In this document: positions 32,436-40,716 of the stretch, one piece after another
Position numbering within the stretch: the stretch's first letter is position 1
Layout: each line of letters begins with the position of its first letter
Origin: Balamuthia mandrillaris
Lineage: Eukaryota
NCBI GenBank assembly: GCA_031835245.2
Contig: JAVKOQ020000060.1
Coordinates: 186,001-228,299 of the forward strand
Length of the DNA stretch: 42,299 nt
Reading direction: 5' to 3'
The notes under the pieces: model-generated
What the model was told of the DNA's origin: nothing
The model's database searches: none
What the model saw: the letters and a program-made list of their open reading frames with translations, nothing else
Program-made: the position numbers and the translations under genes

Positions 32436-33207
32436 CTCCTTCTATTCAACTATTTTTTTAAAAAATTGTTTTTGTAAGAACAAGCTTTAGAAAAACAACG
32501 AAGAAGAAGAAGAAGAAGAAGAAACGAACACAAAAAATGACGTACTTCAAAGATGTCGATGTCTCTGTTTTTTTAAAAAAAAGTTGTGTGGTTGTGTGAT
32601 TTCGTCAGACCAAAAGATAAAAAGATTTGGAGGTTTTTTTTTAAAAAAAAAAACTGCGTACAAAAAAAAAAATTGAGTCGCTAGCAAATAGAATGGAGTC
32701 CAGAAGAACAATCTCACTCTCTCTCTCTCTCTCTATTGTCGCTTGAGGGGAGTGTCGCTCCGTTTGGTTGGCTTTCGTTTGTGTCTCTTTTTCTTACTTT
32801 TTTGTTCTACGTGAACCGGGCGCAAAGGGAGAAATAAATGTTACGGGTGATTTGCTGGCCGCTGGCTCCGGTAAACAAACAAAGGCCACAAATGTCCAAG
32901 AGAAGTGGTGCCAACCAGTGTTTTTTTTTTAAGCGAACAGTTGGACGTGCGTTCCATTCTCTCCTCGAAAAAAGTTTTTTTTTCCGATCAGGTGGTAACA
33001 TAACGTGCATTCCTGGAATTACTTTCATACCTCTATAGATCGATCAGAGTTATCATCTGGTTGCGTTACGTCACCGTTATCCTTCGTCGGAAGTAACTGA
33101 CGTGTCGTTCAAAAAAAAGAAAGAAAAGAAAACTTTTTTTACTGTTCATCTCTTCGCTCTTCCTCTTTCCGCTGTTGCTTCTTCTTGTTCTACTGTGCAC
33201 AAACCAA

Positions 33208-35031
<1,824 letters not shown>

Positions 35032-35361
35032 GGCGTTATGTTTGTGTTGTGCTAGATTCTCACCCCCTTTTGCAACAACCCAATCTCTCTTTTTCACTAC
35101 TTTTTTTTGTCCCTCTAAAGTTTTTCTTTCCGCCACGAGAAACCTCGCTGGCACTGCCGCATCCCTATCCTCACACATGCCGGTCGGCAAAAAAACCTGA
35201 AGTCGACAGTTATGGCTTGCGTGACATCACCATGTCTGCAAATGTCATCTGTCGGCACAAAAATAAAAACGTCGACGAAAATATTCCCGCCAAAAAAAAA
35301 AACCCAAACCAAAAAGAAGTTGCACACCACCCAACAAAAGAAAAAAGTTACAAGACCTAGA

Positions 35362-35858
35362 ATGGACGCCAAAGAGGAACGGACAGGAGAAGAGGGGGAT
35401 CAAGAGGAGCACGAGGAGGGCAAAGAACAAGCCACGCGGATGCAGGCCGTGTTCCCCATCACCCGTATCAAAAAGATTGTAAAGTCCGACCCGGACGTGA
35501 AGCTAATCAGCACTGACGCTGTCCACATGATTTCTAAATCGACTGTACGACTGTCTCCTCATCGAGATCACTTCTTTTTGTGTGGAATACTCACGCTTTG
35601 TTGATGCAGGAGCTGTTTCTTGACTATCTCACCAAACAAGCCTACACCTACACTCAAGAAGAAGGCAAAAAGACACTTCAGTACCGAGACTTGGGTACCT
35701 CTCTACTCTCTTCTCTCTCTACTGTCGCAAAAACTCAGCATTGCACCTCAACAGCAAAATGTGTGGAAGAGGTGGACGTGCTGGACTTTCTCCTCGACAT
35801 CATCCCACCCACAGAAAACATACGGTCCCCTGACTTCCCCAACAACAATCCCGAATAA
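35362..35858 (+). CDS. Histone-fold protein of the POLE4/CHRAC1 (Dpb3-like, H2A/NF-YC type) family, 3 exons
   Basis: FPITRIKKIVKSDPDVKLISTDAVHMISKST/ELFLDYLTKQAY..KKTLQYRDL/AKCVEEVDVLDFLLDIIP. Confidence 0.88.
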
Positions 35859-35998: not shown

Positions 35999-36063
35999 AA
36001 TTAGAGTGCATCTTTTTTCTTGAAACAAAAAGAAAAAAATAGAAAGAAAAACAAAACATTCAA

Positions 36064-37762
36064 CTATGTAGAAGAAGGAGAAGGGGACGCAGAAGGAAGA
36101 TGAACAACAACGCCGCCGTGCCTGTTGATCTCGGCCAAGAACCACTTGCGAGCGCGTATGTTGGCCATACCGCTGACTTGCTCCCAAGTCAACCCGTTCT
36201 GCTCCAACTCTTGCTTGCTCTCCTTTCTCACATCATTGCAAATCCACTCCACAAATTCTCCTATCAAATGCGTCTTGCTTCCAGTGTTGTTGTTTACTTC
36301 TTGTTGTAGTGAAGGTGAAGGAGAAGAAGAAATGATGACTTCCTCCCAGCCTTGACGCAAACGAGCTTCTGTGAAGAAGAGGTCTAAAAACTGCTCTGCG
36401 CTCTCCACCAGCTCGGGAGAGAGCTGCACACTCTTCTTGCCAGCGATGACGCTGTGTGTTGGTCCTTTGGTCTTGAAGCTCAAGGCTTGAAAGAGGTCTG
36501 GAGAGAGTTCAACTCGCTGTTCTGCTTCTTCTTTAACTTCTTCAGAAGCCAAAGGGAAAGAAACAGGATACCAGACGAGACCTTCGCCGCTGCCGCTGAC
36601 GCCGAACCGAGACTTAACCCACGGATCCTCTTTGTCCACGTTCTCCACTAGAACGTTCATTCGATCCACCTCTTTGATCAACTGTCCTTCCGAAGAAGCA
36701 AAGTCCATTTGTACTTGTATCAGTTCCGCTTCTTCATCCTCTTTTGAAGCGTAAGAAGGAGACAATGAAGGAAACCACGGTAGGACAATGAGGTCTTGAG
36801 GCATGGGCAGAGCGCCTTCTTGTTGGAGGAAGGAGAGGATTTGGTCAGGAGCGACAATGAGCTTGGACTTGTCCAAGAGCAGCGCGAATACAGCGTACAT
36901 TCGCTGGTCCACGTTGCAGATGGCTGCTCCTCTCATTATTCCTTTTATTTTGTTTCCAAGAGAAAAGGAAGCAAGAAAAAAAAGTTAAAATCATGATGAT
37001 GCAAGAAGAAAGCAAAAGAAGAAAGAAAGAAACCTTTGCCACACCACTCTCCAAAGACGGTGACAGATTTGTATCCAGCATTCTGCTTGTAGAGTGACTT
37101 GAAGTATGCTTTGCGGTCCTTGTGCAGCGCCCACTCTGCAAAACCATGGTGGTCCTTCTCTTTCGTCAAGAACTTGTTACGACTCTGCACAAAGATATCG
37201 TTGCCGTTGTGTTGAATGCTGATGGCACCGTTGGTGCCGTGAAGCTTAATCTTGGCGCGATAAGTGATGGAGGAAGGAAGCTGCAGCTTTGGCTCTTTTT
37301 GCTTGTCCTTGTTTGCGTCTTCTTCTCCTTTTTCTCCAGTCGCTTCTTTTGCTTTTTCTTCGTGTGGTTCTGGTTGGTTGGGTTCAGTGATTCGAGCTCG
37401 AACGTTGTAGAAGAGACCAATCTCAGGCCAACGATAGAATGTGCCCTTTGGCCTCCTTCGTCGCTTCTTCTCTGCTTCCTCTGTTTAGCAAAATGCATTG
37501 TTATCAACAAACCCAAAAGAGAGAGAGAGAGAGAGCAGGAATAAGAAACGAGCAGAGAGATGGGCCAACAAATCATGAAAAAATTATGAGGAAAAGAGGA
37601 GAGGGAAGAAAACGTACTTTTGAGTTGAGGGTAAAGGTCAGGATAGTTACGAAGCAGCCATGGTTTGCACCGATTGAACACACTCTTCGTGTTGTATTCA
37701 CAATACTCTGGAGGAAGTCCACACACTTTTTGTTTGTTTTTGTCGAGAGAAAACTGTAGATG

Positions 37763-37800
<38 letters not shown>

Positions 37801-38024
37801 AATCTCTCTGTCTGCCGAGGAAAAATTTGAAATGACTTTTTTTTTTCATGCTACTTACTCGGACAATAGACAACGTCTCGGCCAGAGTGTAAGAAAGGCA
37901 CCACGGTGTCTTCCCCTTGCTCGACAACATTCTCTGCCTCTGCCTCCTCCTCTTCCTCTGCTACCGAAGGAGTAGCAGCAGCAGCAGCAGCAAGCTTGTT
38001 CGTTGCGTCTTCTGTGGAGCTCAT
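36064..38024 (-). CDS. Fusion protein: DENR/Tma22 N-terminal zinc-binding domain + ATP-dependent RNA ligase (Rnl2-like nucleotidyltransferase); exons 38024-37859, 37725-37618, 37480-37034, 36941-36064
   Basis: Spliced frame reads VVYCPMCGLPPEYCEYNTKSVFNRCKPWLLRNYPDLYPQLKKEAEKKRRRRPKGTFYRWPEIGLFYNVRAR..YRAKIKLHGTNGAI..QSRNKFL..DHHGFA..VFGEWCGKGIMRGAAI..GEGLVWYP..FKTKGPTHS..FTEARLRQG..DVRKES; all three introns are GT-AG and phase-compatible. Confidence 0.82.
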
Positions 38025-38276: not shown

Positions 38277-40716
38277 TCAGTATAAAGAACCGCACAGCAA
38301 TGCCGTCAATCTGACCCATGAAACGAGTCTTGGTCCACTATGAATACCTAAACTTACAAAGAGAGCAAAGGATGAAGCGAGAGAGAGAGAGAGAGAGGTG
38401 ACCAAGTATTTCTTTGGTATTGTTCGGCTGCGAAAAGTCTGATTTTTAAAAGAGAGAACCCTGGACAAAGAGCTTATGCGTGGCTTTGAGCTTGGATTCA
38501 TCGTAAGGTGGATAGCGAACAGCTGGATCCAACCAGGTGCCCCGCTTCAGTACCGACTTGAAGTTCGAGAATGTATCAAAACTGTGTTTTCCACGATAGC
38601 TTCCCATTCCACTTGCTGTTTAGTTTGTATCAACAACAAAGAGGAGTAAGAATACAAGAAATAGACAGACAAACAGAAGACAAAAGAGAAGAGAATGGCG
38701 AACAAACAGAAGAACACTAACCTCCATTTCCACCGAAAGGAGCATCAATGACAGAGTAGTTCATCATGCAGTCGTTAACGCCCACTTGACCTGAGCTTGT
38801 CTCTTGCACAAAGGTTTCAATGTCAACCGAGTTGGAAGAGAACATGTATGCAAAGAGAGGCTTTCCGTTTTTCTTTTCTTGTCTCTTGATAAACTTTATT
38901 GCAGCCTTTGAATGAAGAAGATAAGAACACAAGCAGGTGATAGACAGAACGATAAAGAAGACCAACGAAGAAAATAAGAAGAAGAAGAACAAGAAGTGGA
39001 AGAAGAAGAATCTGAAGAAGAGGTAGATGATGAAGAAGTGGAAGAAGAAGAATCTGAAGAACAAGAGGATGAAAGATCCAAACCTCAAGATTTGTAACAG
39101 GAAAAACTGAACACAGCGGAGCAAATATTTCTTCCTCCATGATGGAAGAGTCCAACGGAGGCTCTCGAATGAAGGTCGGGGCAATGGTCAGAGTTTCTTC
39201 ATCGTAAGTTCCTCCGAATATCACGTTCTCTTCCACCTCTTGCAACAACCCCAACACTCGCTTGAAATGGCCTTCTGAAATGATTCTGGGTCATTTAAGA
39301 GGATAACATTGAGTCAGACCCACAAGCTCGGAAAGAAATATGCGACTAAGAAAACGTGAAGCAACAACAAACTTGCTAAAGTCAGGAGACTTCAAAGGAT
39401 CATCTCCATAAAACTCTTTGATGTTCGCTTTCAAAGCTTCCATCAGCGGCTCCATGACTTCTGGATCCACCAGCAGATAGTCAGGACTCATGCAAACCTG
39501 CCCTCCGTTTACGCACTTGGCCCAGGCGATTCTCCTTGCTGCTACAGGGATGTTGGCCGTACGGTCGATGAAGCAAGGGTTCTTTCCTCCAAGCTCCAAG
39601 GTTAAGGGGGTGAGGTACTCTGCTGCCGCCTTGGCCACGAACTTGGCCACGCGACCTCCTCCTGTATAGACTAGAGCAAGCCGTAAACAAAGGAGAAGAG
39701 AGAAGAGAAAAGGGACAAAGATAGGCAAACGAAAGACGGCAGACAGATAGAGGAGAGTCAAGAGGTGAGTACAAATGTGGTCCCACTGCTCTTGCAACAA
39801 GACTTTTGCGATGGAGGCGTCTCCTTCCACGACGCGGACTGCAGTATTGTCGAGATACTTTGGTACTTGAGAGGCCAAGAGAAGGGAAGCGTGGGGAGCT
39901 AACTCTGAAGGCTTCAATACCGCACAATTGCCTGCCGCTATTGCTCCAATCTACGAAGACAACGGTGGTCATCTTCCGAAGAAAGGAGAAGAAGAAGAGG
40001 AGAAGGAAGAAGAAGAACGAAGAAGCACAGCAACACAGCAGCGACTAAAGGATGGAACCGCACCAACGGAATAACAGCCAACGCCCAAGGACCGTTCCAC
40101 GGAGCGATGATAAGAACCACTCCTTTTGGCTCTGCGGAAAGCGTATGTAAGGTAATGAACTAAGAAGCGCCAAAGCAGAAGGAGCGAACCAGGATAAGTG
40201 TTGCAACTGCCATCCAGCTTGAGCAACAAGGGCACCGAGTGCTTCTTTGGGCTGACCCATGACTTGAGTTCCTTTTGGGCTTTCCTCACCTCGTCCAAAC
40301 AAAAAGCCATCTCAAAGCCAACCTACAGATCATTTGAAACACGTCAACCACCAAAGACAGAAGACACAAGAAGTCAGAAAGAAAGAAGAGAAAGAAACCG
40401 TTTCAACTGGGGCACGATGAAGGTCAACAGCAGCAGCGTCCACGATCCACTTCTCGTTGTCCAGCACCATCTGCTCGATCGCCTTCAACTGCCTCAGCCT
40501 CCATTCCAAGGACCTCGTCGCCCCCGTATCGAAGTTGGCGCGAAGGCCTTCCACCACTTCCGGGACTTCCGCAGGAGCGGGCGAGGCGGGGCAGCTTGCT
40601 CTCAGCCCCTCCCAGTCCAATGATTGACCTGAAGAAGAAGACGACGAGGCAGCATCGGTCTCTTTCTCTTTGTCTTTATGTTGTGGTGGAGTGGAGGTTG
40701 AAACCGCGTTACCCAT
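38277..40716 (-). CDS. ALDH3: Class 3 (fatty) aldehyde dehydrogenase, multi-exon
   Basis: TRSLEWRLRQLKA; VLIIAPWNGP; KPSELAP; YTGGGRVAK; PLTLELGGKNP; NGGQVCMSPDY (catalytic Cys); EEEIFAP; APFGG; RYPPY; short hydrophobic last exon. Confidence 0.92.

Follow-up and report, generated by a model that had tools for sequence, protein, structure and literature searches.

Structure of the fusion gene

Does a gene of Balamuthia mandrillaris join the N-terminal module of the translation factor DENR to an RNA ligase, and what would the resulting protein repair? The window, which is the whole stretch of 42,299 nucleotides that was analyzed, carries a minus-strand gene (38024-36061) whose four exons, joined in an open reading frame reconstruction, encode an open protein of 532 amino acids. 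This protein consists of a DENR_N domain (PF21023), a basic linker, and a full Rnl2-type ligase (PF09414), in that order. The three introns of the gene (133, 137, and 92 nt) are all GT-AG introns in phase 1, and all features given below lie on the minus strand. Exon 1 (37859-38024) holds the start codon at 38024, an acidic low-complexity tail (aa 1-50), and the first zinc cysteine, C54; the NCBI model P0001 has the same start, and RNA contigs cover the gene only from 37926 downward. Intron 1 (37726-37858; 133 nt) interrupts a codon position common to the metagenome loci L005 and L012. Exon 2 (37618-37725) encodes the rest of DENR_N, matches PF21023 with an E value of 9.7e-13, and was aligned to PDB 6ms4_B. 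Intron 2 (37481-37617; 137 nt), which is found in L005 but not in L012, separates DENR_N from the ligase exon. Exon 3 (37034-37480) encodes the end of the DENR helix, the basic linker (37443-37480; aa 92-104), the N-terminal strand and helix of the ligase, a variable insert (aa 125-160), and ligase motifs I, Ia, and III. After intron 3 (36942-37033; 92 nt; common to L005), exon 4 (36061-36941; coding part 36941-36064, stop codon 36063-36061) encodes motifs IIIa, IV, and V and a helical C-domain, and it is 100% identical to P0001. The preliminary description had proposed that intron 2 joins the two halves in frame, and the joined frame was indeed open over all 532 residues. Read-through of intron 2 yields only a frameshifted tail and then a stop, and the translation of exon 3 agrees with the earlier remark that this exon has no in-frame Met.

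Pfam searches of the whole protein returned two families only at an E value of ≤1, DENR_N and RNA_ligase. As had been expected, no SUI1 domain was present in the protein (Pfam) or in the window, where a canonical DENR (P0160) matched at exon 2 only. The 532-residue protein is KAL6068671.1 of B. mandrillaris at NCBI, named "Translation machinery-associated protein 22" (Tma22), and a second NCBI copy (KAL6080043.1) differs from it in the first 45 residues only. Because SUI1 is absent from both the protein and the window, the Tma22 label is a mis-filing, and the public annotation hides a different enzyme. The surroundings of the gene look like ordinary housekeeping genes without a repair cluster; from their open reading frame translations, we take the neighbors to be an aldehyde dehydrogenase (38443-40700, minus strand), a histone-fold protein (35361-35858, plus strand), and a proteasome ATPase subunit (33146-35051, minus strand).

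Transcription, splicing, and assembly continuity

The predicted junction 37618/37480 was recovered in a spliced contig of a probable RNA run. A 255-base contig of run X1 (record 5; depth, 87.9) runs through 37902-37859, 37725-37618, and 37480-37378 and thereby skips introns 1 and 2; the shorter flank of the intron 2 joint measures 103 letters. These 103 exon 3 bases extend as far as the opening strand and helix of the ligase fold (residues 104-123). Intron 3 is skipped in an X1 contig as well; X1 was taken as RNA by guess, and its contigs lack all three introns. Raw RNA reads crossed intron 1 twice (X7) and intron 3 once (X6), and none were listed across intron 2 in X6, X7, and X8, of each of which 3 to 5% was read. 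Runs X2 and X3, of which a small share was read, gave short exon 4 pieces only, and no single RNA contig spanned the entire message. An unspliced DNA-type contig (X4 record 9), from a run that may or may not be independent of the source of the window, extended unbroken from 36101 to 37755. Since the DNA contigs are continuous, the neighborhood is not an assembly chimera, which had been named as a danger to the fusion. Among strain variants in the folded part, whose boundaries were set from the model and the alignment, 14 of 19 were synonymous, against 21% expected (P = 1.5e-6). The folded part of the fusion protein is thus under purifying selection.

Two further groups of contigs were observed. 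Two DNA-type runs from a single sample (X4 and X5) contain a short contig that agrees with exon 1 over 30 bases (37869-37898) and then diverges just before the first cysteine codon; partial duplication, a rearranged allele, and an assembly artifact would each account for it. In addition, X1 contigs match ligase motifs at 37038, 37262, and 36329 and then diverge in frame, which suggests that a second, more distant ligase paralogue is expressed in that run.

Conservation of the DENR module

The same architecture was found elsewhere, as the preliminary description had asked. Six distinct versions of the fusion, with 33 to 58% pairwise identity, were identified: P0001 (with its allele P0003), P0006 (with P0156), P0009, P0004, L005 (with L038 and L043), and L012. 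Two of them (P0006 and P0009) were the DENR_N carriers among the best 150 of the 50% representatives, P0009 came from a Trinity transcriptome in EukProt, and P0004 was a longer cluster mate of a truncated match. Four of 80 metagenome loci carried DENR_N, representing two versions (L005/L038/L043 and L012), and none of 160 bacterial and viral loci did. A search with the DENR_N region among proteins of 292 to 931 amino acids returned only P0001 from six candidates and was insensitive, as it missed fusions found later; the same search among shorter proteins, likewise of low sensitivity, gave one candidate, an unnamed canonical DENR.

Exon 2 alone scored 48 bits against DENR_N and the whole protein 53 bits (Pfam cutoff, 25.3), and the NCBIfam DRP1 cutoff was not reached. 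The four cysteines of the zinc site (C54, C57, C64, and C75) align to human DENR, in agreement with the earlier reading of exons 1 and 2. By alignment to 6ms4_B, C57, E62, Y63, C64, Y66, and C75 of the Balamuthia protein correspond to human C37, E42, Y43, C44, Y46, and C53, respectively. All six fusions have four zinc cysteines (C75 was read from the printed alignment). According to PMC6013234, residues 24 to 51 of human DENR form the minimal MCTS1-binding region, with contacts through E42, Y43, and Y46, of which any two are dispensable and only the triple mutation abolishes MCTS1 binding. The E42 position is kept in all six fusions; Y43 is tyrosine in five and phenylalanine in one, and Y46 is tyrosine or phenylalanine in four. 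Identity to P0001 across the six versions was 46 to 68% in DENR_N (residues 51 to 91), 32 to 49% in the ligase, and 8 to 22% in the tail. The better conservation of DENR_N than of the ligase and the tail indicates that the module is under selection. On these residues, binding of MCTS1 by the DENR module of the fusion is predicted with good confidence.

Compared with human DENR, P0160, and the Pfam profile, all six fusions carry an insertion of two to three residues in the zinc module, ahead of the fourth cysteine; this insertion hints at one origin. A linker of 17 to 24 residues with 6 to 9 K/R follows DENR_N in each of them, and by the sequence comparisons the fusion point is best placed at this basic linker. 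Intron 2 was considered as the fusion point and rejected, because the likeness to DENR extends a few residues into exon 3 and L012 lacks this intron. An organellar enzyme was likewise rejected, given the acidic N-terminal tails of all six fusions, which were judged by composition only.

Properties of the ligase half

Exons 3 and 4 encode a full ligase, as had been claimed, with all Rnl2 catalytic residues and a C-domain. Exon 3 alone scored 40.3 bits against RNA_ligase (cutoff, 27). A profile of 142 relatives matched T4 Rnl2 with an E value of 1.3e-18 across both domains in one stretch (28-305 to T4 24-301), pairing K170, R192, E236, F259, K397, and K399 with T4 K35, R55, E99, F119, K225, and K227, respectively. 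The roles of these T4 residues are described in PMC3149579. Motif I, KLHGTN, was confirmed at 37247-37230 and carries K170, the predicted adenylated lysine. Motif III, FGEWCG (37038-37055), carries E236, and F259 lies in motif IIIa. Motif IV, GEGLVW (36571-36588), contains E360, which is invariant in 142 of 142 rows, and motif V, FKTKG (36463-36477), contains K397 and K399. In the Rnl2-type helical C-domain (36121-36405; aa 420-514), R434, D477, and E481 are conserved in at least 90% of the 142 rows. K170, H172, R192, E236, F259, E360, K397, and K399 are kept in all six fusions; a dead ligase was therefore rejected, as every catalytic residue is retained.

A model built from the 142-relative alignment had a mean pLDDT of 84 and a helical C-domain; an earlier model from six sequences was poor (pLDDT of 50) and was set aside. 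The best structural match of the model was T4 Rnl2 (Z score, 16.0; root mean square deviation, 3.2; 203 residues aligned), in an alignment that covers residues 104 to 406 only and places the start of the ligase fold near residues 100 to 104. Foldseek gave an E value of 2e-9, with 2hvq, 1s68, and 1xdn (T4 Rnl2 and the trypanosome editing ligase) as the best fold matches. The equivalog cutoff of TIGR02307 was missed (14.9 versus 197.15 bits). The ligase would thus work like Rnl2 but sits outside the T4/REL equivalog group, in a separate, uncharacterized subfamily. This subfamily has 2953 representatives at an E value of ≤0.001, a count that may include DENR-only matches. No healing domain, whether kinase or phosphoesterase, was detected in the chain (Pfam, E ≤ 1), and the model leaves no room for more domains. 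An ATP-dependent ligase activity is predicted with high confidence.

Origin of the fusion

The exon-intron layout and the ligase phylogeny were compared among the versions. The codon and phase of intron 1 are identical in the three genomic versions, and introns 2 and 3 are common to L005, where the introns of L005 and L012 are predicted. In L012, the junction of DENR and ligase lies inside one exon and open frame, flanked by an Ariadne-type IBR gene and a bromodomain gene; these neighbors are eukaryotic. The IBR gene upstream of this fusion (L012:489-2465) encodes an intronless Ariadne-type ubiquitin ligase with N-terminal EF-hands.

In a FastTree tree, the six fusions were dispersed among entries with incomplete N termini, and several other entries from that region of the tree start no earlier than the basic linker. 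Such linker-start entries may be truncated fusions, truncation being demonstrated for P0002 and P0122 only. In a ligase-only tree of 70 of 327 rows, the six fusions and five incomplete entries formed one weak group (SH-aLRT, 83). With 68 of 327 rows, the group also held P0101; a single origin of the fusions had the support of 32% of bootstrap trees and was not rejected (p-AU = 0.48). The outgroups were a random sample, L240 and L224 were dropped as long branches from the 68-row bootstrap and AU test, and the fusion group was defined after the first tree, so that the clade test is post hoc. The duplicated 5' part of an intron-bearing DENR gene would have been joined, probably once, to a ligase whose family otherwise has a patchy distribution over bacteria, large viruses, and some protists.

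Unfused relatives and their gene neighbors

Relatives of the ligase were found in cyanobacteria, myxobacteria, and other bacteria and on large viral contigs. Unfused eukaryotic relatives occur in Pelomyxa and Vexillifera, which indicates that the ligase can work without a DENR module. By motif count, an OB-fold extension occupies the position of DENR_N at 47 of the 77 bacterial genome loci; the metagenome set has 13 such loci of 65 and the viral set 5 of 75, and related cyanobacteria dominate the counts. Pfam tRNA_bind matched four of five OB-fold proteins tested, two of them above the cutoff. The neighbors of the prokaryotic and viral ligases include NADAR (11 loci), PARG, Macro, HD, RlaP, and PNKP, which are the usual company of RNA repair (PMC7824862); such neighbors are sparse, no family being present at more than 11 of about 215 loci.

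Several of these relatives were noted in their own right. Proteins with a tRNA_bind OB fold and an Rnl2-like ligase form a group in cyanobacteria and myxobacteria (L081 to L160, e.g., L087:5001-5942; P0015, P0029, and P0135), often beside NADAR, PARG, or Macro, and this group is apparently uncharacterized. On a viral contig (L197:2908-6496), RlaP, the ligase, and a PNKP kinase-phosphatase are adjacent, which makes a complete heal-and-seal cassette for this ligase subfamily. P0058 (1025 aa) is a ligase of the same family fused to BRCT, WGR, and PARP domains, and P0129 is a ligase relative whose N-terminal extension, 110 residues long, is of a different kind.

Possible function of the fusion protein

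The preliminary description read the protein as a ribosome-tethered repair enzyme. A transcribed DENR_N-ligase fusion without SUI1, with intact contact and catalytic residues, is in line with a repair reading, but the wording of a ribosome tether is weakened by tRNA binding away from ribosomes and by the loss of the h44 contact. We give about an even chance to the fusion being an MCTS1-guided tRNA repair enzyme. Through its DENR module the protein would bind MCTS1, and a tRNA, either free or on a recycling 40S subunit, would be held at its acceptor end by the PUA domain of MCTS1, leaving the ligase to close a 3'-OH/5'-phosphate break in the tRNA so held. End healing beforehand would be carried out by separate kinase and phosphatase enzymes. 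The role that the OB fold may play in cis in the bacterial ligases would here fall to MCTS1, in trans. According to PMC6013234, ribosomes are not required for tRNA binding by DENR-MCTS1, in which the PUA domain of MCTS1 takes the acceptor end; the assays used full-length DENR, and SUI1 may contribute to the binding. If MCTS1 binding and ATP-dependent ligase activity are granted, we would lean slightly toward tRNA as the main substrate.

Several observations stand against MCTS1-guided tRNA repair. Rnl2-type ligases work best on duplex RNA nicks, and breaks in the anticodon loop are the specialty of Rnl1 (PMC1807946 and PMC3884662). Most ribotoxins leave cyclic-phosphate/5'-OH ends, for which an Rnl2-type enzyme needs a kinase and a phosphatase first (PMC7824862); the ends made by metal-independent nucleases also call for healing enzymes, and no healing domain is fused to the ligase. 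Y46 is lost in two of the six versions, the OB-fold counts are heavy in cyanobacteria, the repair-type neighbors are sparse, and unfused eukaryotic relatives exist. The putative N-terminal OB fold of Deinococcus Rnl functions in adenylylation and nick sealing, and not in any demonstrated tRNA binding; such N-terminal modules therefore need not mean tRNA.

In a strictly ribosomal alternative, MCTS1 would anchor the ligase to h24 in the 40S subunit, and 18S rRNA, mRNA, or P-site tRNA would be repaired during recycling, in the place vacated by SUI1. According to PMC7114459, MCT-1 binds h24 of the 40S subunit alone, and the h44 contact is supplied by SUI1 and goes with it. The ligase begins 17 to 24 residues past DENR_N, where the SUI1 linker normally starts, rRNA offers the duplex nicks that Rnl2 enzymes are described as preferring, and PrfH-RtcB2 is a bacterial precedent. 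Nevertheless, a 400-residue enzyme on a short linker must fit the subunit interface, healing domains are absent, the bacterial relatives point to tRNA, and DENR-MCTS1 binds tRNA in the absence of ribosomes (PMC6013234); we regard this tether as unlikely. Alternatively, the module may serve regulation, stability, or location through MCTS1 or a different partner, rather than substrate delivery, for example by titrating MCTS1 from canonical DENR, or the linker may send the ligase to the nucleus for RNA processing, circularization, or 5'-adenylylation. The K/R-rich linker of all six fusions, a putative nuclear signal by its resemblance to the consensus, fits such a role, as do the unfused eukaryotic ligases of the family, the zinc-module insertion in all six versions, and the loss of Y46 in two. 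Against it, the MCTS1-contact face is more conserved than the enzyme, and basic residues after the helix also occur in canonical DENR; we would assign this role a minor share of the probability. A prediction that merges a DENR fragment with an independent ligase gene beside it, or a recent unselected fusion, would agree with an intron 2 junction that rests on one contig from a run taken as RNA by guess, with no raw reads listed across that intron in three thinly read runs. The spliced contig over the junction, the absence of an in-frame Met from exon 3, the continuous DNA contigs, and the purifying selection argue otherwise, and the architecture recurs in five distant homologues, including one with the junction in a single exon and another assembled from a transcriptome; an artifact or neutral accident is thus highly improbable.

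A bolder scheme can also be drawn, which we offer as a tentative and rather doubtful one. In this protist translation-coupled repair machine, the ligase would replace SUI1 on the DENR scaffold, and MCTS1 would load it on the post-termination 40S subunit to mend tRNA or 18S rRNA after nuclease attack by prey, endosymbionts, or viruses, as an independent counterpart of PrfH-RtcB2. A link of the fusion to ribotoxin attack is plausible by likeness to the bdelloid ligases, for which it is likewise a hypothesis (PMC11258130).

Comparison with known systems

Searches of the literature on DENR/Tma22, on Rnl2, OB-fold, and PF09414 ligases, and on Balamuthia RNA ligase or horizontal gene transfer found no description of the DENR_N-ligase architecture. 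The claim of novelty thus apparently stands, although the most likely catalogue, that of Burroughs and Aravind 2016, may yet list it; the available part of PMC4599027, on divergent Rnl2 ligases, does not mention DENR. The fusion is a real, conserved, and apparently undescribed eukaryotic variant of RNA repair ligases. Few natural substrates of Rnl2-type ligases are known to us outside trypanosome editing, and we are aware of no eukaryotic enzyme for RNA repair that is linked to a translation factor. The conserved fusion is a testable handle on what a large uncharacterized ligase subfamily repairs, and it bears on whether MCTS1 is a general adaptor for tRNA or the 40S subunit beyond reinitiation.

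Both domains of the fusion are already known, and bacteria provide a precedent, RtcB2-PrfH, for linking an RNA ligase with a translation rescue factor (PMC6514570). The parallel drawn earlier with RtcB2-PrfH holds as a concept only. That system has an unrelated ligase fold and chemistry, comprises two separate genes, and uses a release factor instead of a recycling-factor module. The chemistry does not carry over, since Rnl2-type enzymes cannot join cyclic-phosphate/5'-OH ends without prior kinase and phosphatase action. The RtcB fold is absent from the fusion, where Pfam, profile, and fold all indicate a covalent nucleotidyltransferase. With DENR/Tma22, the partner of MCTS1/Tma20, the fusion shares the N-terminal tail, the four-cysteine zinc module, the E42/Y43/Y46 contacts, and the helix after the module, but it has a ligase instead of SUI1, and the Balamuthia protein has two extra residues between the third and fourth cysteines. 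It shares motifs I (with His), Ia, III, IIIa, IV, and V and a profile-alignable C-domain with T4 Rnl2 and the kinetoplastid editing ligases; unlike them, it has an N-terminal DENR module and falls below TIGR02307, and the identity is about 14 to 19%. Trl1- and Pnkp-type self-sufficient heal-and-seal enzymes differ in that the fusion chain is without kinase and phosphoesterase domains. The bacterial tRNA_bind OB-fold ligases belong to the same ligase subfamily (30 to 40% identity) and carry their N-terminal addition at the same place, but their RNA-binding module is in cis, whereas the fusion would recruit one in trans through MCTS1. Rnl5 of Deinococcus and Naegleria (DraRnl/NgrRnl; Z score, about 14) resembles the fusion in its nucleotidyltransferase core, the His of motif I, and an N-terminal addition; Rnl5 has an OB-type N-domain and no C-domain, in contrast to the DENR_N and C-domain of the fusion.
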